Shown one piece after another: positions 1 to 9,088 of a stretch of DNA of 64,000 bases. Position 1 is the first letter of the stretch. Every line of letters starts with the position of its first letter. The stretch is from Deltaproteobacteria bacterium (lineage in GTDB: Bacteria > Desulfobacterota > Desulfomonilia > UBA1062), in assembly GCA_018433775.1 (NCBI GenBank), contig JAHDQN010000005.1:10272-74271 (forward strand), written 5' to 3'. Under the pieces are notes generated by a model, which had not been told where the DNA came from, searched no databases, and saw only the letters and a program-made list of their open reading frames with translations. The translations under genes and the position numbers were made by a program.

Positions 1-999
1 GTCCGGATAAATCAGCCGGCGGTGCTCGCCCAGCGGCAGCTCCCCCGCCGGGAGACTCAGCACATAAGCCTTTGGACAGGTGCTGCCCGTGACAACGATT
101 CCCGTGGGATACTCCTTCTTGACAGGGATGGTGTCAAGGTCCTTCCGGGCTTTGCCAAGCCGGCCGTCCAGCTGTTTCTGCAATTTCCCCTGGACCGCGT
201 CCCTTCCGGACAACCTGGCCCCGTCAACCTTGGCCCGGGCATCGTGGTCTTTGGCCGAGAGGCCCCGTTTGGGGTTCATTCCGGCGGATTTCGATGCCTT
301 GTGCTTGCGTCTGGCGTGCTCGCGCTCGAGCTTGTCCAGCCTGAAACGGGCGGCATCGAGCCGGCTCGCAGCCGATTCCTTTTCCATCCGTGCCTGCTCT
401 GCTCCGGCTGAATAATTGCCGGGCCGCAGAATCGCAGCGGGGCTCTCGATGAACACACACTCCCTGCAGAGATTATCCAGGAGCTCGCGGTCGTGGCTCA
501 CGAGCAGCCCGGTTCCCCTGTACCTCTTCAGGGCACGGTACAGCAGGTTTTTCGTGGCTGCATCCAGGTGGTTGGTGGGTTCGTCCAGGGCCAGCAGATC
601 GGGATTGAGATACAGGGCGGACGCGATCTGAAACCTTTTGCGCTCGCCGAAGCTCAGGCTCTCCCAGCGGAGCAGGTCCTCGTCTTTCAGATCGAGATCG
701 GCCTTCAGGATGAGAGAGTCGCGGTCCTGGGCTGCCATGAGCTGTTCGACCCCTTCGGGCGGGTCGTCCGTGCGCTGCGGGCAGTAGCAGACCAGCTCCG
801 GAATGCTGACGAGGCCACGGTCGGGCTGCAGCCTTCCGCACGCAAGGAAGAGAAGGGTGGTTTTGCCGGCGCCGTTGGGACCGACAACACCGGTCCAGCC
901 GCGGGAAAAATGGAGGGTCACGCCGCTCAGCAGCTCACCCGTCATGGAGTCGTAGGAAAAATCGACATTGTCGAAACGCAAGAAAGTCCGATGGGTCAT
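1..999 (-). CDS. ABC-F family ATP-binding cassette protein (N-terminal ATPase domain plus linker; 3' part lies beyond the window edge)
   Basis: Reverse-strand ATG at comp(997-999) gives MTHRTFLRFDNVDFSY... The reading frame stays open to position 1. Walker A is GPNGAGKTT, the ABC signature is LSFGERKR, and Walker B is LLALDEPTNHLD. The PTNHLD motif is the ABC-F hallmark. A charged coiled-coil linker follows (ARMEKESAASRLDAARFRLDKLERE). Confidence 0.8.
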   Translation of the reverse strand, partial: MTHRTFLRFDNVDFSYDSMTGELLSGVTLHFSRGWTGVVGPNGAGKTTLLFLACGRLQPDRGLVSIPELVCYCPQRTDDPPEGVEQLMAAQDRDSLILKADLDLKDEDLLRWESLSFGERKRFQIASALYLNPDLLALDEPTNHLDAATKNLLYRALKRYRGTGLLVSHDRELLDNLCRECVFIESPAAILRPGNYSAGAEQARMEKESAASRLDAARFRLDKLEREHARRKHKASKSAGMNPKRGLSAKDHDARAKVDGARLSGRDAVQGKLQKQLDGRLGKARKDLDTIPVKKEYPTGIVVTGSTCPKAYVLSLPAGELPLGEHRRLIYPD

Positions 1000-1403
1000 T
1001 CGTAAGCACCTTTCATACCTACCCGGGCCGGCCCGGAAGAGGGAAGACAGTGCAGCGGCCCATGAACAGGTGCGATGAATGTTCGAGTGTTTCCTGACAG
1101 CCGCTGGGCTCGATCCCCCGGGCCGGAACGGTTGGTTTCTTTTAGGAAAAAGCCGCGGCTTTTCCAAAAAAAGGATGTTCCTCTGTTCCTGGCTTGGGGA
1201 CAGGTTCCATTAGCGGCTGTTTTTCATTCCCGTGCTCTCCAGATATGAAGGATTCTAAAAGGATGCATACTTCATTCAGACCGTGACTGTCAACATCTGC
1301 CCGGCGAGACCAAAGCCGCATCTCAAGAAAACAGAAGGCCGTGGCTTGCATCAAACGCAGATCCACCTCCTTCTTGAACCGGTCGATTCTCTCTGACAGG
1401 AAA

Positions 1404-1444
1404 GTTGACAATAAAACGAATAATGAGTTGACAACAGGTTGACG
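1404..1444 (+). promoter_or_regulatory. Triad of GTTGACA boxes (GTTGACA 1404-1410, GTTGACA 1427-1433, GTTGACG 1438-1444) immediately upstream of the HTH-ATPase-STAS gene; candidate operator and/or -35 elements
   Basis: Read directly in the sequence. The three boxes sit at offsets 0, +23 and +34, the same as the second triad at 2470-2510. The ATG at 1456 lies 12 nt downstream. Confidence 0.5.
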
Positions 1445-1455
1445 ATAGATACTAT

Positions 1456-2481
1456 GTGCATATGATATCAAGGGAAGAAGTGCTTTATTTTATCAAGATG
1501 AACAAGTCTGTAAACGGGCACGATGTCGCCGGACATTTTGGAATCTCCCGGCAGGCAGCCAACAAACATATCAAGGCGCTGCTGATCGAGGGGAAGATCA
1601 TAAAGGAAGGCGTTACCAGGGGCGCACGGTACAAGCCGGCCGATGCAGCCGGCAGGGCGGCGCGATCACGGGGCATTCAAAGAAAATATGCATTGAGCGG
1701 CCTTGAGGAGCATGAGACATTCAGCCGGATATCAACCCTGCTCAATCTTGAAAACAGCGTAAGCAACGCTGCGTATACAATCATCAGGCACGCATTTACC
1801 GAGATGCTCAACAATGCGATCGATCATTCACTGTCAGAGTCCTGCGTTGTCCATTTTGAGCTTGATCAGTACGAATGCAGCTTCACTGTCCGGGATTTCG
1901 GCATCGGCATCTTTCACTCCATCTGCACGAAAATCGGCCTTAAGGATGAACATGATGCGCTCGGCCAGCTCCTGAAAGGGAAAACCACGACCATGGAGGA
2001 GCGGCATTCCGGCGAGGGCGTTTTTTTCACCTCCAAGGCCGGCGACCGGATGTCCATCAGATCACATCGCATAAGGATCGAATTTGACAATGTCCGGAGA
2101 GACGTCATTGTTGAAGAAAAGCGTTTCATCAAAGGGACAGAGATATTCTTCTCTATTTCCAGGCGCTCAAGGCGGGATCTCTCCGCCATTTTCAGGGAGT
2201 ACTCACCTGAAATGTTCGATTTCCGGTTCGAGAAAACCAGGGTGCGCGTCAACCTGACAATAAAGGAGCTTGTCTCACGATCCGAGGCCAAGCGGCTCCT
2301 GTTCGGCCTTCACAAATTCCGGGAAATCGTTCTGGATTTCAGAAAGGTAAAGACCATAGGGCAGGGGTTCGCCGATGAGATATTCCGCGTCTTTCCCAGG
2401 GAAAACCCGGGAACGGTCATAAAACCCGTGAATGAGAACCAGGTCATAGCGCAGATGATCAGGCACGTGGTTGACAAATAA
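1456..2481 (+). CDS. Fusion protein: N-terminal winged-helix HTH + GHKL (RsbW/anti-sigma-kinase-like) ATPase + C-terminal STAS-like (DUF4325-like) domain
   Basis: The HTH region is GHDVAGHFGISRQAANKHIKALLIEGKI. The GHKL N-box is FTEMLNNAIDHS, the G1 box is VRDFGIGIF and the G2-like box is GEGVFF. The C-terminal stretch ...LDFRKVKTIGQGFADEIFRVF resembles a STAS/anti-sigma-antagonist fold. An alternative ATG exists at 1462. Confidence 0.65.
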   Translation: MHMISREEVLYFIKMNKSVNGHDVAGHFGISRQAANKHIKALLIEGKIIKEGVTRGARYKPADAAGRAARSRGIQRKYALSGLEEHETFSRISTLLNLENSVSNAAYTIIRHAFTEMLNNAIDHSLSESCVVHFELDQYECSFTVRDFGIGIFHSICTKIGLKDEHDALGQLLKGKTTTMEERHSGEGVFFTSKAGDRMSIRSHRIRIEFDNVRRDVIVEEKRFIKGTEIFFSISRRSRRDLSAIFREYSPEMFDFRFEKTRVRVNLTIKELVSRSEAKRLLFGLHKFREIVLDFRKVKTIGQGFADEIFRVFPRENPGTVIKPVNENQVIAQMIRHVVDK

Positions 2482-2510
2482 TGTTTGGACAGGTTGACAA
2501 TCGGTTGACA
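2470..2510 (+). promoter_or_regulatory. Second triad of GTTGACA boxes (2470-2476, 2493-2499, 2504-2510) overlapping the stop codon of the HTH-ATPase-STAS gene
   Basis: Three perfect GTTGACA heptamers sit at offsets 0/+23/+34. This is the same geometry as the upstream triad at 1404-1444. The TAA stop (2479-2481) lies inside the module. Confidence 0.5.
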
Positions 2511-2734
2511 AGAAGGTTCGAGGGAAAGATGACGTCAGGACCAAGAAGGGGATGCTTTCCCCGCACCCTCTTAAGCGGTACCGGAAACCGGCGACCGCTT
2601 CCCGGGTGATCGGATCTGAAGGCCCGGCCATGAGTGTGAGCGGACAATCAGTGGTATGAATTTTCAACGGCAAACCCTGGCCTTTCCCCGGCAAGCTCCA
2701 GGGGAATCAGCCCCGCCCTTTTAACTACACGGTG

Positions 2735-2846
2735 TCGTAAGTGCGCAAGCGAAATATCCAAGCAACCAAAGAGTGATTTTTGGCTGCGGGATAGCGGTTC
2801 TGTTCACTCAGTACCTGCTGCCGTAAGTGCGCATACGAAAATCAAG
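2735..2846. repeat. Two ~26-bp direct repeats (CGTAAGTGCGCA[A/T][G/A]CGAAA[T/A]AT-CAAGCA) at 2735-2760 and 2821-2846 inside a ~460-bp non-coding stretch
   Basis: tCGTAAGTGCGCAagCGAAATATCCAAGCA aligns with cCGTAAGTGCGCAtaCGAAAATCAAGCA. There are only two copies and they are not CRISPR-like. Confidence 0.45.
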
Positions 2847-2945
2847 CAGTCGTAGGGCGTTTTATTGACTGCATGATTGTGATTGCGGAAACTTAATCCT
2901 CAAGTAGAGAAGGCGAATGAGTATTGATGTCATAAGGGCGCTTTT

Positions 2946-3143
2946 TTATGAGCCAGGCTCGTGCGCCTTCCTGCCGTAGACACGCTCGTATGCCCTGCAG
3001 AACGGGCACAGGCCGTCCTCGATGGACTTGACGAACCAGAAGGCAAAGCCCTTCTGCTCGGCCCTTGCCCGGCGGCATACCGGGCACTCGACGCACCGTT
3101 GCGCCATCTTCCTGTCCCTTTCGCTGACTGCTGCCGGTTTCAT
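2946..3143 (-). CDS. Small zinc-ribbon protein (65 aa, two CxxC pairs)
   Basis: Internal ATG at comp 3143 is preceded by AGGAGG about 8 nt upstream on the reverse strand. Translation is MKPAAVSERDRKMAQRCVECPVCRRARAEQKGFAFWFVKSIEDGLCPFCRAYERVYGRKAHEPGS. The longer 114-aa ORF extension lacks an RBS. Confidence 0.5.
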   Translation of the reverse strand: MKPAAVSERDRKMAQRCVECPVCRRARAEQKGFAFWFVKSIEDGLCPFCRAYERVYGRKAHEPGS

Positions 3144-3389
3144 TCCCTGACCTCCTTTTCTCTTCCACTGTGGGGAAGAGACACGTACACACACTGTATC
3201 CGGATACGGACCACGAATGGCCTGTGGAGCAACCCCCGCAGGGATATCCTTCCAGGTCCGCTTTGGATGACTAAGAAGGTGGAACCACATCCCCCTTCGA
3301 TAGTGCGGCGTGATGCCGGACCGAAGGGCTCGCCCTCTCAGAAACCCATGCCGCTGATCGATGCCGTATAAATAATAACGGCCCGGCGG

Positions 3390-5504
3390 CTAGAAGGAAT
3401 GCTTCCCGGTCGAGATGCCCATGGCCTTCATCTTCTCATAGAGCCACGACCGGCTGATGCCGAGGATTCTGGCCGCCTGGGCCTTGTTCCCCCGGGCCTG
3501 CTCCAGTGCCTGGAGCACGATCTCCCGTTCGTGGTCTTCCCGGCTGGACTTAAGCATCCGCCGCCCCGGCGGGGATTCGGGCCTTGCGGGGGCGTGGCGG
3601 GCTCTCTCGCGCAGGTACCGGGGCAGGTCGTGCCTTTCGATGACAGCGCCCCGGGCGAAGTTGATGCCCCGCTCGATCACGTTCTCCAGCTCGCGGACAT
3701 TGCCCGGCCAGTCGTGGTCGAAGAAGATCTCCCGCACCTCTGCCGACACGTTCCGGATGCCGGTCCCGAAGATGCGGTTGTACTTGTCCAGGAAATACTG
3801 CACCAGCAGGTCGATGTCCCGGCAGCGCTCCCTCAGCGGAGGGATGTGCAGGTGGATGACGTTGAGCCGGTAGAAGAGGTCGGGACGGAACCGCCCCTGC
3901 ATCACCAGCTCCTCGATGTCCTGGTTGGTGGCTGCGATGAACCGGGCATCGACCCTCTGGGGCGTGTTCGATCCGATGGGCTCGAAGCACTTGTCCTGGA
4001 TCACCCGAAGGAGCTTGCCCTGCAGCGTCAGGGGCAGGTCCCCGATCTCGTCCAGGAAAAGCGTGCCGCCGTCGGCCATGGCGAGCTTGCCTTTTTTGCC
4101 GGAGCGGCTGGCACCCGTGAACGCGCCGGGTGCATAGCCGAAAAACTCCGACTCCATGAGGCTGTCGGGAATGGCGGCGCAGTTCACCTTGACGAGCGGG
4201 CCCGTGCGGTAGCCGCTGCCGTGGTGGATGGCCTGGGCGATGAGCTCTTTGCCCGTGCCGCTCTCGCCGGTGATGAGGATGTTCGAGGTGCCCCGCGACA
4301 CGATCCCGGCCTCGTCGATGATCTGCCGAAAGGCCGGGTCAGCGGTGACGATCTGATGGAATCCGTCTCCGGGCTCGGTCTCCTCTGGCCCGGACCGGGC
4401 GGAGCCCGCGATCTCCCGGTCGACGTGCGCGAGCTTCCGGGCCAGCTCCTTGATCTCGTCGAGGTTCCTAAACAGAATCTTGCCCACGGCCCCCACCACC
4501 TGTCCTTTCCGGATGATGGGCAGGGAGGACACCACATAGGGGGTGCCTGCGATGAACTGCAGCCGGTTCATCTCGGGCACTCCGGTCCTGATGACCTTCA
4601 TGATCCGGGTGTTCTCGATGACCTCCTCCACGGGCCTGCCCAGGATGTGGTTCTCGTCCCTCCTCAGGAAGCGCTCCGCCGCCTGGTTTGCCATGGATAT
4701 CAGGCCCTGTTCGTCCACCACGATGATCCCGTCATAGGCGAGGTCCATCACCGACTGCAGGGTCCGGTAGAGCTTGGTGACGCTCTCCAGTTCGGTGATG
4801 ATGCGCACCAGGTCGGTCACGTCCTGGAACACGATGATGGCGCCCGTGATCTCCCCCTCACGGGTGATGGGGGTGATGTTGCACAGGAGGCTCATGTCCT
4901 GGCCGGTGTAGAGATATCCCACCGAGGGCCGGCCGCCGATCAGTACCTCGTCGAGCTTCAGCCCGGGCAGGAGGGATTCGGCCCGCATGCCCCCGGCCCG
5001 CTCCTGTGTGGTGGAGAGGATCTTCTCCGCGGCCCTGTTGAGATTGACGACGGTGCTGTTCGTATCGAGGACCAGCAGGCCGTTGTACATGGTCTGCAGG
5101 ATCGCGTTGAGCTCGCTGTTGATCTGGGTTTCGCGCCTGAGCATGGCCATGATCAGGCCCGTCTTGGTGAAGATTCCCGTGATCTCCTGATCGTCGTTCA
5201 CCACGACCGCATTGCCGGCCCTGCTCGTACGGACGATCTCCCGCACCTCTTCATAGGGAAGGTTCTCGTTGAGCATCAGGATGTCGGCAGTGAAGAGGCC
5301 GCGTATGGGCGTGTCCGGCAGTGCGCCTTTCGCCAGTGCATCGAAGAGGTTTGCCTTGGTCATGATGCCGATGAGCCGGCCTTTCCCTCTCTCGACCGGA
5401 AGGGCCTCCAGATGTGTCTCCCGGAAGAGCCGGGCCACGGTGCGAAGATCGTCCTCCGGCTTCAGCCTCCGGAAGGAGCAGGTCATCATATCCTTCAGAA
5501 ACAT
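3390..5504 (-). CDS. Sigma-54-dependent transcriptional activator (enhancer-binding protein) with a CBS pair, PAS domains, an AAA+ sigma-54 interaction domain and a Fis-type HTH
   Basis: CBS-like N-terminus (..GIMTKANLFDALAKG.., ..NAVVVNDDQEITGIFTKTGL..). PAS region. AAA+ Walker A GESGTGKELIAQAIHH and GAFTGA motif. C-terminal ARILGISRSWLYEKMKAMGI. The start is taken at ATG comp 5504 (MFLKDMM...). The track's 5516 start is a TTG. Confidence 0.85.
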   Translation of the reverse strand: MFLKDMMTCSFRRLKPEDDLRTVARLFRETHLEALPVERGKGRLIGIMTKANLFDALAKGALPDTPIRGLFTADILMLNENLPYEEVREIVRTSRAGNAVVVNDDQEITGIFTKTGLIMAMLRRETQINSELNAILQTMYNGLLVLDTNSTVVNLNRAAEKILSTTQERAGGMRAESLLPGLKLDEVLIGGRPSVGYLYTGQDMSLLCNITPITREGEITGAIIVFQDVTDLVRIITELESVTKLYRTLQSVMDLAYDGIIVVDEQGLISMANQAAERFLRRDENHILGRPVEEVIENTRIMKVIRTGVPEMNRLQFIAGTPYVVSSLPIIRKGQVVGAVGKILFRNLDEIKELARKLAHVDREIAGSARSGPEETEPGDGFHQIVTADPAFRQIIDEAGIVSRGTSNILITGESGTGKELIAQAIHHGSGYRTGPLVKVNCAAIPDSLMESEFFGYAPGAFTGASRSGKKGKLAMADGGTLFLDEIGDLPLTLQGKLLRVIQDKCFEPIGSNTPQRVDARFIAATNQDIEELVMQGRFRPDLFYRLNVIHLHIPPLRERCRDIDLLVQYFLDKYNRIFGTGIRNVSAEVREIFFDHDWPGNVRELENVIERGINFARGAVIERHDLPRYLRERARHAPARPESPPGRRMLKSSREDHEREIVLQALEQARGNKAQAARILGISRSWLYEKMKAMGISTGKHSF

Positions 5505-5671
5505 GGCTCTCGGCAAAATCCTCCATTAGATGCCAACGATTTATATTTCATACATATATCATTCCCGGCCTGAAATGAAGGTCGATTTTCAAAAACGGCA
5601 TCTGCGGACAGGCAGTCATTTTCGATGAAGGCGCCTAACCAGAGGAAAACAATTGATAAAACAACAGGCCA

Positions 5672-7588: not shown

Positions 7589-9088
7589 ATGACAGCAGCT
7601 TATACCCCCATCCTCGCCGGCGTGGCCCAGTATACCCAGCCCAGGGACGCGCAGCGGCCCCTGGACCCCATGGGTCTCATGATCCGCGTGTGCGCCGGGG
7701 CCCTGGAGGATGCCGGCTCCGATAAGCTCAAGGATCTCATCGATGCTCTGTACGTGGTGAACCTGTTCCAGTGGCCCTACCGCGACGCACCGGGCATGCT
7801 GGCGGATGCCCTGGGCATCAATCCGGCAGGGAAATACTATACCCCCATCGGCGGCAACACGCCCCAGATGCTCGTGAACAGGGCCTGCCGGGCGCTGGCC
7901 GCAGGCACGGTCCGGGCCGTGCTCATCACCGGGGCGGAGGCCATCTACTCCCTCAGGCGCGCCCTGGCGGGAAAGATCGTTCTCGACTGGCCCGAGAGCG
8001 GACAGCCCGAACGTATCGACGGCGAGGAGCGTGGAAGCGTAAACCGGATCGAGGCGGACTATGACCTCTTTTTCCCGGCCGTCATGTACCCCCTGTTCGA
8101 GACCGCGCTGAGGGCATCGTCCGGCCGTAGCGTCGAGGGTCACCGGGAGTACGTGGGCAGGCTCTGGGAACGCTTCTCCCGGACTGCGGCCGTCAATCCC
8201 CACGCCTGGATCAGGAGAGAGCTGAGCGCCCGGGAAATCATCGAGGTCACGCCGGACAACCGCTATATCAACTATCCGTACACCAAATACATGAACGCGA
8301 ACATCAATGTCGACCAGTCGGCCGCAGTGCTCATGACCACGGCGGAGACAGCCCGGCGGCTCGGGATCGACCCGGCAAGGCTGGTCTACCCCCTGGGAGG
8401 GGCTGATTTCTCCGATGTCTGGTACGTGTCCAGGCGGCCCCGGCTCGACTTCTCGCCCGCGATCCGGAACGCCTCCCGGCTCGCGCTGACGCAGGCGGGG
8501 CTGGATTTGAGCGACATCGACTTCTTCGACCTCTACAGCTGCTTCCCCTCGGCCGTGCAGATCGCCATGAAGGAGATCGGCATCGCGGAAAATGACCCGA
8601 GAGATCTCACTCTCACCGGCGGGTTGGCCTTTTTCGGCGGTCCGGGAAACAACTACTCGCTGCACGGCATTGTCTCCGCGGCCGAGCGGGTCAGGGCCGA
8701 CCGGTCGAAAAAGGCCATGGTCACGGCAAACGGCTGGTACATCACCAAGCACTCCATCGGCGTCTACGGCGGCGACCCCCCGGAGCGGCCCTGGGGAGAG
8801 CGGGACGACGCTCCCGTCCAGGCGGCGATCGATGCAGAGGCGCTGCCCGAGCCGGCGGAAAGGGCCGAGGGCGACCTGAGGGTTGAGGCCTACGTGATCC
8901 GGCACGGCAGGGAGGGCAAGCCCACGCTCGGCACCGTGATCGGCAGGCTCCCGGACGGACGGAGGACCCTGGCCCATATCGAGGCCGGGGCAGATGAGCT
9001 GGAGGAAATGGAACGGGTCGAAATGGTGGGGCGGACAGGGCAGGTGCACACCATTTCCGGCAAGGCCGGGAATCGGGTGCGCTTGTAA
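7589..9088 (+). CDS. Thiolase-family protein (SCP-x / non-decarboxylating condensing-enzyme type) with a fused C-terminal OB-fold (DUF35-like) domain
   Basis: Thiolase-like core (..CSSGLTA-like region; C-terminal GGLAFFGGPGNNYSLHGIVSAAERV). A ~100-aa C-terminal extension, EAYVIRHGREGKPTLGTVIGRLPDGRRTLAHIE...RVEMVGRTGQVH, is OB-fold-like. Confidence 0.6.
   Translation: MTAAYTPILAGVAQYTQPRDAQRPLDPMGLMIRVCAGALEDAGSDKLKDLIDALYVVNLFQWPYRDAPGMLADALGINPAGKYYTPIGGNTPQMLVNRACRALAAGTVRAVLITGAEAIYSLRRALAGKIVLDWPESGQPERIDGEERGSVNRIEADYDLFFPAVMYPLFETALRASSGRSVEGHREYVGRLWERFSRTAAVNPHAWIRRELSAREIIEVTPDNRYINYPYTKYMNANINVDQSAAVLMTTAETARRLGIDPARLVYPLGGADFSDVWYVSRRPRLDFSPAIRNASRLALTQAGLDLSDIDFFDLYSCFPSAVQIAMKEIGIAENDPRDLTLTGGLAFFGGPGNNYSLHGIVSAAERVRADRSKKAMVTANGWYITKHSIGVYGGDPPERPWGERDDAPVQAAIDAEALPEPAERAEGDLRVEAYVIRHGREGKPTLGTVIGRLPDGRRTLAHIEAGADELEEMERVEMVGRTGQVHTISGKAGNRVRL

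Follow-up and report, generated by a model that had tools for sequence, protein, structure and literature searches.

In a 64-kb window (the whole stretch of DNA analysed, 64,000 nucleotides (nt) of contig JAHDQN010000005.1 from a Deltaproteobacteria bacterium), we studied a gene whose product joins on one chain an N-terminal winged helix-turn-helix (wHTH), a GHKL ATPase domain and a C-terminal STAS-like domain, and which carries at each end a triad of 9-bp direct-repeat boxes of the type GTTGACAAT. Our reading, to which we give about an even chance, is that the gene, carried on a small accessory cassette, encodes a DNA-binding switch that is made of one polypeptide, depends on ATP and represses its own synthesis. 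The evidence lies in the conserved ATP-binding residues, in a STAS domain that lacks the canonical phospho-acceptor, in triads of fixed geometry over a promoter of leaderless layout and at the 3' end of the gene, and in the presence or absence of the gene among relatives, with no conserved partner beside it.

Bacteria have a classic signalling device in the partner switching of GHKL kinases and STAS proteins, and the family described here would be a single-chain, DNA-bound version of it. Its set of features is unusual and conserved across phyla: the gene has a leaderless start and an operator on either side, with one box lying in its final three codons, and its product has Gln at the acceptor position. 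With regulatory DNA that is predictable at base-pair resolution (9-bp boxes in a 23+11 nt geometry), the family is uncommonly well suited to the question of how DNA binding is governed by an ATP/STAS switch; it also bears on the reason for operators at either end of a gene, and on a possible part of direct-repeat operators in gene gain and loss. Partner switching was extended in 2026 to the DNA-damage control of immune operons by the CapK/CapS and VapKSC systems (PMC13373217), which serve below as the main comparison.

Gene model, domain architecture and the acceptor site

The open reading frame (ORF) as first read covers 1456..2481 on the forward strand and begins with GTG 1456. The frame itself stands, and the motif strings that the original prediction had quoted from it (FTEMLNNAIDHS, DFGIGIF and LDFRKVKTIGQGFADEIF) are all present; the start codon has to be moved, as both the alignment of homologues, which begin at the residue aligned to M(1462), and the geometry of the promoter point to ATG 1462, two codons downstream. 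The true start is probably this ATG, on a leaderless mRNA, rather than GTG 1456, and the coding sequence of 339 amino acids (aa) plus stop then occupies 1462..2481 (+).

The three domains lie on the forward strand in the order given above. Residues 1-59 (1462..1638) form the wHTH, as judged from the secondary structure of an AlphaFold2 model and from hidden Markov models (HMMs), with ISRQAANKHIK as recognition helix. The SpoIIAB/RsbW-like GHKL ATP-binding domain covers residues ~70-236 (1669..2169), on the grounds of HATPase_c_2, fold matches and invariant residues, and contains the N-box (1795-1830), the G1 motif (1894-1914) and the lid/G2 motif (1969-2034). Residues ~250-339 (2209..2478) make up the DUF4325/STAS-like domain, which Pfam, fold and profile alignment all support.

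This architecture, proposed earlier from the letters of the window, is confirmed by HMM matches in 116 homologues and by a fold search with the AlphaFold2 model. For the window protein, Pfam places DUF4325 (PF14213, STAS-like) at residues 277-329, above its gathering score (E=1.3e-12, 47.7 bits vs 23); HATPase_c_2 and HATPase_c match residues 101-203 slightly below theirs (E ~4e-5; 24.3 bits vs 27.4 for HATPase_c_2), and several winged-helix families match residues 7-58 weakly. When the 116 homologues were scanned singly, DUF4325 was found in 116/116, HTH_11 in 114/116, HTH_24 in 109/116, MarR_2 in 103/116 and HATPase_c_2, at E<1e-3 and with a best E of 2e-8, in 102/116. A profile of the N-terminal domain searched against PDB sequences found the MarR-like AdcR, the wHTH protein AspA and ArsR (AdcR and AspA at E 4e-4 to 3e-3, AspA at 0.0015-0.003). 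The single protein had no relevant match among PDB sequences, and NCBIfam gave weak partial matches and PADLOC weak matches to HTH, nothing more in either case.

The AlphaFold2 model, built on 116 homologue sequences, has a mean predicted local distance difference test score (pLDDT) of 85.2 and a predicted template modelling score (pTM) of 0.75, and its disorder is confined to linker residues 64-66 and the ATP lid (174-184). Residues 4-59 fold into three helices and a beta-hairpin wing. The best PDB fold matches (Foldseek) are structures of the anti-sigma kinase SpoIIAB (1l0o, 1til, 1tid, 1th8; E ~1e-5, target template modelling score (TM) 0.65-0.71), and the C-terminal residues ~250-339 superpose on SpoIIAA, RsbV, RsbS and TM1442 with a root-mean-square deviation of 2.6-3.0 A over ~90 columns (TM 0.55-0.66). 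A fold search of BFVD returned generic GHKL, wHTH and STAS matches and nothing else. A Toprim- or MutL-like C-terminal domain, which was considered with the idea of a mini-topoisomerase, was dropped in view of the STAS fold returned.

Invariance was counted in 135 family representatives, at most 50% identical to one another. E114, N117, N118, H122 and D145-x-G147-x-G149 are invariant among them, as are K172-G-K174, T176, T177, H182 and G184-x-G186; since the ATP-binding residues are essentially invariant, the GHKL domain very probably binds ATP. The lid of the window protein, TTxxxxRHSGEGxFF, resembles the lid of SpoIIAB.

Of the partner-switching reading in the original prediction, the ATP motifs hold up, but a STAS domain that acts as a classical phosphorylatable antagonist is not supported. 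Among solved or characterised proteins, the sole relative of the C-terminal domain that turned up is VapS (PDB 9Z7O; E=0.047 for the family C-terminal profile against PDB sequences, hhalign probability 77%, E=2e-5), whose sequence, taken from the supplement of the paper, is a clear DUF4325 protein (E=2.7e-17). VapS is phosphorylated at Ser48 by the GHKL kinase VapK (PMC13373217). In both profile and hhalign alignments this Ser48 falls on Gln301 of the window protein (codon 2362-2364, +). The position is Gln in 132 of the 135 representatives, preceded by G300 in 133/135 and followed at residue 302 by G in 82, A in 49 and S in 4, and no phosphorylatable Ser or Thr stands within one residue on either side of Gln301. 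STAS helix 2 starts at residue 301 in the model, which is the location of Ser58 in SpoIIAA. Because the acceptor Ser is replaced by a Gln that is practically invariant, the C-terminal domain would not be a classical antagonist or substrate; it resembles more a pseudosubstrate or the internal STAS domain of CapK and VapK, which is unphosphorylated and forms with the GHKL domain a groove predicted to bind activating single-stranded DNA (ssDNA) (PMC13373217).

The same domain holds another motif, S272-R273-S274 (window 2275-2283), where STAS helix 1 begins. It is kept without exception in 135/135 representatives, and neither VapS nor SpoIIAA showed an identifiable counterpart; it might bind a ligand or accept a phosphate in place of the canonical site.

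Box triads over the promoter and at the 3' end

GTTGACA occurs 7 times in the 64-kb window, and 6 of these occurrences lie within 1288-2510. Ahead of the gene, three boxes stand on the forward strand: box 1 (GTTGACAAT, 1404..1412) is centred near -58 relative to ATG 1462, box 2 (GTTGACAAC, 1427..1435) contains TTGACA (1428-1433) as the -35 hexamer, and box 3 (GTTGACGAT, 1438..1446), 11 nt after box 2, lies in the promoter spacer. The start-to-start spacings are 23 and 11 nt, both in this triad and in the downstream one. A promoter scan of the window gave TTGACA-16-TACTAT with 10/12 matches, and the -10 hexamer TACTAT (1450..1455, +) ends 6 nt before ATG 1462, a distance that implies the leaderless mRNA predicted here.

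Operator-like triads and a compact autoregulated module had already been suggested for the window, and the suggestion gains from what lay beyond its reach, namely that the triads recur with fixed geometry in relatives. The related loci compared all come from metagenome-assembled genomes (MAGs) or metagenome assemblies. An upstream dyad with 11-nt (rarely 12-nt) spacing is clear in 69/80 loci, a third box lies 23-24 nt further upstream in 60 of these 69, and in most (~65) of the 80 loci, from more than 10 phyla, the triad is found at -58/-35/-24. Box 2 starts 35-37 nt ahead of the start codon in 40/69 loci, which makes its TTGACA the -35 hexamer and places box 3 within the spacer. In 38/47 loci a -10-like hexamer was found, and the distance from its end to the start codon is 6 nt in 20 loci and 7 nt in 4; no Shine-Dalgarno-like motif was found upstream of the gene (0/47). 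On the side of the protein, the recognition helix (S/T)RQAxNxH(L/I)(K/R) is kept in 80/80 proteins. The co-conservation of helix and box, together with the different operators beside phage relatives that have another type of HTH (see below), argues well, though indirectly, for a wHTH that reads the GTTGACAAT box.

At the other end of the gene the triad is repeated on the same strand. Box 1' (GTTGACAAA, 2470..2478) is made of the last three codons, V-D-K in the window; box 2' (GTTGACAAT, 2493..2501) follows after 23 nt and box 3' (GTTGACAAG, 2504..2512) after another 11 nt. The downstream dyad is present in 30/79 loci, which form the subfamily closest to the window, as against 0/1293 random 120-nt background windows from the same loci, and in 29/30 a third box stands 23-24 nt upstream of it within the last codons of the gene. 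Box 1' is in frame as Val-Asp-Asn in 26/29 loci, where the codons are GTT in 24/24, GAC in 26/26 and AAT in 17/17, while the same three make up 29%, 33% and 64% of the respective codons elsewhere in these genes. A C-terminal VDN is conserved neither in the wider family nor in subfamilies without the downstream triad, and this, with the codon bias, shows that the terminal V-D-N codons are under selection at the level of DNA. In a few loci the ORF runs through the whole downstream triad, the stop TGA lying within box 3.

Of 27 loci, 19 have a convergent gene as the first substantial one beyond the 3' triad, and the gene in this place is never conserved; the 3' triad of the window has no -10. The 3' triad is probably not, as a rule, the operator of another gene. 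A preferential placement ahead of co-directional genes is ruled out by the 19/27 convergent neighbours, and a role of the 3' triads as substitutes for intrinsic terminators was dropped as there was no difference (6/30 vs 5/48). No further dyad was found in the rest of the 64-kb window. Since dyads elsewhere are rare and no partner gene is conserved, the main target would be the gene itself.

Some further copies lie near the cassettes. A single inverted GTTGACA, the sole inverted copy near the module, stands at 1288-1294 (-), 116 nt upstream of box 1. Seven loci (L020, L022, L043, L049, L064, L078 and L080) have tandem triads or a second triad 90-220 nt further upstream; such doubled upstream triads might form an extended operator or have been left behind by a neighbouring cassette that was lost.

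Distribution, gain and loss of the cassette

The fused architecture, first presented as out of the ordinary, turned out to belong to a common family of fixed length. A word-indexed search returned more than 5,700 matches; the 120 highest-ranking ones have full length, 334-376 aa apart from a single protein of 438 aa, and 50-65% identity, and are annotated only as 'DUF4325 domain-containing', 'STAS-like domain-containing' or 'biotin operon repressor/anti-sigma regulatory factor'. HMMER over the 50%-identity cluster representatives gave 2,205 matches at E<=1e-3 and 614 at E<=1e-30; among the 150 matches listed, nearly all are 330-360 aa long and aligned end to end. The phyletic survey, in which one genome per species was taken from GTDB, found relatives encoded in at least 540 stretches, that is, in at least 540 species, from Desulfobacterota, Nitrospirota, Gammaproteobacteria, Acidobacteriota, Spirochaetota, Planctomycetota, Verrucomicrobiota, WOR-3, Omnitrophota, Chloroflexota and others.

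Every ORF within 6 kb of the gene was clustered in 80 loci, and no neighbour family recurs beside the gene except among very close relatives; neither a sigma factor, a PP2C phosphatase or a separate STAS gene nor a PIN gene or a capS-like gene is recurrently linked to it in these loci. The ABC-F gene next to it, on which the original prediction had remarked, is therefore a coincidence, and relatives have the ABC-F gene beside the sigma54 regulator without the cassette.

Such relatives show directly that the gene comes and goes. The window is ~90% identical to a Syntrophaceae MAG (L001), and a segment of ~2.0 kb at 1341..3387, made of the cassette and ~875 nt of extra DNA, is present in both and absent from two other relatives, L224 and L225. 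By blastn, window 1-1340 aligns with L224 9482-8140 at 88.9% and window 3388-5589 with L224 8117-5913 at 86.7%, and in L224/L225 the sigma54 gene and the ABC-F gene are ~22 nt apart in the alignment; the sigma54 activator of L224/L225 is 88% identical as protein, and no boxes were found at the empty site. Two further relatives, L220 and L221, which carry a sigma54 activator 87% identical, retain a degraded 3' remnant of the gene (aa 280-339, 65% identity; 8492-8671) beside an ISL3-family transposase (L220 8966-10180, -). This region of the chromosome is a variable spot in the lineage of the window.

The extra DNA shows several features of its own. About 200 nt of non-coding sequence right after the 3' triad (2513-2720) are ~90% conserved with L001 and 77% with L220/L221, and contain a GC hairpin at ~2548-2568, no ORF and no Rfam match; Rfam gave no match in the whole window at gathering scores, nor in 1000-3500 at E<=1. 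An ORF of ~65 aa at 2946-3143 (-), MKPAAVSERDRKMAQRCVECPVCRR...CPFCRAYERVYGRK, with two CxxC pairs and GGAGG upstream, is ~91% conserved in L001 and ~79% in L220, lies within the 2-kb segment absent from L224/L225 and has no Pfam match; its product may be a zinc-ribbon protein carried along with the cassette. Relative to L001 the window has insertions at 2723-2894 (~172 nt) and 3176-3292 (~115 nt), of which the first holds a 29-nt direct repeat (2726-2754 and 2812-2840, 79% identical). Tandem Repeats Finder (TRF) found no tandem array in 2450-3450.

A second case comes from a Desulfatiglandales locus (L010), with the order flank, triad, -10, gene, triad, flank. In a metagenome contig (L189), both flanks, ~80% identical to those of L010, are joined by a single triad, and the two blastn segments between L189 and L010 overlap by exactly the 43-nt triad; a contig from another metagenome (L199) shows the same triad followed by the downstream flank of L010. 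Since the exact repeat common to the two L010 triads is just 21 nt, collapse during assembly is unlikely, though possible. The presence or absence of the cassette is bounded exactly by the triads in this case, but not so at the window locus with its ~2 kb indel. Among the 120 loci of a metagenome scan for exact dyads, ~45 have the gene beside the dyad, including a subfamily 35-38% identical in which the upstream dyad is kept, and ~10 are perfect solo triads, among ~55 metagenome loci whose triads are genuine. The count of sites leaves out many orphan exact dyads of the metagenomes, which are eukaryotic DNA, tandem 11-mers or matches by chance. The spacers of the two triads are slightly more alike at one locus (identity 0.50) than between loci (0.40; 0/5000 permutations reached the within-locus value); near-identity is seen in L029, L033 and L059, while the spacers of the window are unrelated (3/14 identical).

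Given the presence/absence polymorphism among relatives, the gene is accessory and cassette-like. Its loss may come from ordinary direct-repeat recombination or from a site-specific process. Boxes also occur in long tandem arrays of an 11-nt unit with no family gene nearby, in L118 10984-11106 ((GTTGACAATCT)n, at a contig end) and in L134 1098-1150 ((GTTGACAATGA)n, ~100 nt upstream of an IF-3-like gene).

Phage genomes contribute relatives as well. Four viral contigs (L081-L084) encode full-length HTH-GHKL-STAS proteins that are 35-39% identical and keep the GQGF/GQAF and SRSQAKR/SRSEAKR motifs; the genes sit between replication genes (helicase loader, dUTPase, RuvC, HNH) and terminase/portal genes. 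Distant phage relatives with a different type of HTH are without boxes, and one of them has two palindromes in their place and a normal ribosome-binding site; L084 carries an XRE-type HTH, and two TATAGTTGAACTATAA-like palindromes lie upstream in L083.

Viral DNA without the family gene has boxes too: 15 such IMG/VR contigs hold exact GTTGACAAT dyads and also arrays of 3-4 boxes. They stand ahead of an integrase-like ORF in L095 (about 1794-1825 after reversal), of a 203-aa ORF in L090 and of a 355-aa ORF in L097, and L140 (with L090), L098 and L089 are other viral contigs with boxes. These phage boxes might act as strong promoters of the phage, or the family proteins of the host might bind them as targets or decoys.

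Proposed mechanism, rival readings and known systems

The cassette looks like a portable, compact self-regulated switch, and we propose that it would work as follows. The N-terminal winged helix would sit head-to-tail on the 9-bp GTTGACAAT boxes, the flexible linker (60-69) permitting binding to direct repeats, and with three boxes over -58, -35 and the spacer of its own sigma70-type promoter it would occlude RNA polymerase and limit the leaderless mRNA. The GHKL domain, nearest in fold to SpoIIAB, would bind ATP, and the STAS domain would be its intramolecular or inter-protomer partner, as a pseudosubstrate or as a CapK/VapK-like regulatory domain. A signal that alters the GHKL-STAS contact would change oligomerisation on the repeats and lead to de-repression, possibly also to kinase activity on a substrate; by analogy with CapK, candidate signals would be ssDNA, DNA damage or the ATP/ADP state. 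The 3' triad might be a second anchor for cooperative binding or for looping across the 1.07-kb gene, or alternatively a roadblock that insulates the leaderless cassette from convergent transcription.

Several points weigh against this switch. The main one is that a mostly self-regulating repressor has no obvious benefit, and none of the expected outputs (a substrate, a sigma factor, a regulon) was found; solo triads exist, and these could be the real targets. The binding of the protein to the boxes is taken from co-conservation, and TTGACA is the -35 consensus too, so that the upstream conservation is in part promoter conservation, but this leaves G and AAT on the flanks unexplained, and likewise the 3' triad, which lacks a -10. 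The Nitrospira and gammaproteobacterial subfamilies have no 3' triad or clear -10, and looping or insulation is therefore not universal. The invariant Ser272 and Ser274 could serve as alternative acceptors.

Four other readings were set against it. It is rather unlikely, in our estimate, that the gene is a fused toxin-antitoxin (TA) or anti-phage sensor-effector addiction cassette, in which the kinase is held in cis by a pseudosubstrate STAS domain, the wHTH represses its own gene as in type II TA operons, and phage or DNA-damage cues bring release. VapKSC, a defence TA system that includes a GHKL kinase, would be a comparable case, since its antitoxin VapS is the one DUF4325 protein characterised so far; fused CapRel-type systems or HipBA would be comparable too. 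Patchy presence between close relatives with decay remnants, variable intergenic sites without a conserved partner, spread across phyla at 50-58% identity, tight autoregulation by operators over the promoter and the full-length relatives in phage genomes all speak for it; but PADLOC matched the HTH alone, the neighbours in the window and L010 are housekeeping genes and not defence islands, kinases of this class have no known toxic substrate, and the broad spread with many invariant residues is more typical of a housekeeping regulator. To an all-in-one partner switch that phosphorylates its own STAS domain at Ser272/Ser274, or a DNA-tethered anti-sigma factor whose GHKL domain would sequester a sigma factor in the manner of SpoIIAB and RsbW while the STAS domain competes for it, we give a slightly smaller chance. 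The fold is nearest to SpoIIAB, known in complexes with sigma F (1l0o) and SpoIIAA, the S-R-S motif is kept in 135/135 and the boxes include the sigma70 -35 consensus, against which have to be set the Gln at the canonical acceptor in 132/135 and the sigma factor, PP2C phosphatase and separate STAS gene that are unlinked in 80 loci.

The solo triads bear on the remaining two. A conventional transcription factor with a regulon, for which the 3' and solo triads would be operators of other genes, would account for solo triads of perfect geometry without an adjacent family gene, for a triad 145-230 nt ahead of the same ammonia-lyase-like gene in L010, L189 and L199, with or without the regulator gene, and for the box arrays upstream of phage genes. 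We consider it improbable, as what follows the 3' triad is a convergent gene in 19/27 loci and is never conserved, the 3' triad of the window lacks a -10, most genuine triads flank the family gene itself and the 64-kb window holds no further dyad. Lowest of all we rate a minimal selfish or mobile cassette, the gene with one triad excising and integrating at triads, in which the protein would pair or bridge the triads by ATP-driven GHKL dimerisation, control excision, re-integration or retention, and leave solo triads behind like solo long terminal repeats (LTRs), a role beyond that of a transcriptional autoregulator. The single-triad relatives of L010 in two independent metagenomes, with the junction exactly in the 43-bp triad, the greater likeness of triads at the same locus and the tandem double upstream triads in some loci agree with this; yet the protein has no recombinase or nuclease fold and none is linked in 80 loci, RecA-mediated deletion between direct repeats of 21-43 bp explains L189 equally well, the empty site of the window has no triad and its ~2 kb indel exceeds the cassette, the spacers of the two window triads are unrelated, and assembly collapse is possible even with an exact L010 repeat of 21 nt.

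For the architecture wHTH-GHKL-STAS no functional study was found in the literature searched; DUF4325 gave passing mentions only, 'STAS-like' together with 'GHKL' no match, and GHKL with a STAS domain and helix-turn-helix the CapK/CapS paper alone. In that system a GHKL kinase whose internal, non-substrate STAS domain senses ssDNA controls a STAS-wHTH repressor (Chambers et al., EMBO J 2026, PMC13373217). The likeness lies in a SpoIIAB-like GHKL kinase, a STAS domain and a DNA-binding repressor that binds its own promoter, and for CapK also in the N-terminal HTH and the internal STAS that is not a substrate (PMC13373217). However, CapK/CapS consists of two proteins, HTH-STAS-GHKL and STAS-wHTH with phospho-Ser54, where the window has one, wHTH-GHKL-STAS, with no acceptor Ser; it always lies upstream of an immune operon, whereas the neighbours here are variable with no downstream operon; and its operators are palindromic TTAA half-sites instead of direct-repeat 9-bp GTTGACAAT boxes at both gene ends. 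An hhalign alignment of the family with CapK covered 35 HTH columns only (probability 10%), the C-terminal domain against CapS gave nothing, and neither CapK nor CapS has a DUF4325 match. Membership in CapK/CapS is ruled out by domain order, lack of capS, lack of sequence homology and lack of an immune operon.

VapK/VapS/VapC is similar in that VapS, a DUF4325 protein, works with a GHKL kinase (PMC13373217). But VapS is a free 116-aa antitoxin with phospho-Ser48, bound to a PIN toxin, whereas the domain here is fused to the kinase, has Gln in place of Ser48 and has no PIN gene linked; with no recurrent PIN gene beside the family gene, membership in VapKSC is ruled out as well. SpoIIAB/SpoIIAA and RsbW/RsbV supply the best fold matches for the GHKL and STAS domains, and the N, G1 and G2/lid motifs are intact in the window protein, but they are separate proteins with a phosphorylatable Ser at STAS helix 2 and no DNA-binding domain, and SpoIIAB/RsbW operons hold a cognate sigma factor and a PP2C phosphatase, neither of which is linked here. 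A classical partner-switching operon is ruled out, no sigma factor, STAS antagonist or PP2C being linked in the 80 loci.

For the operator, the closest parallels are the iteron autoregulators of the ParR/parC type, small wHTH or ribbon-helix-helix (RHH) proteins on direct-repeat arrays about one helical turn apart; arrays of the ParR/parC or AspA type overlap their own promoter and form higher-order complexes. AspA also ranks high in the PDB sequence matches to the N-terminal domain. But ParR/parC and AspA belong to plasmid partition operons with a motor ATPase, whereas here a solitary chromosomal gene encodes a fused GHKL-STAS protein and has a second array within and after its 3' end. The cassette is built of the same parts as the known GHKL/STAS systems but stands outside CapK/CapS, VapKSC and the classical partner-switching operons.

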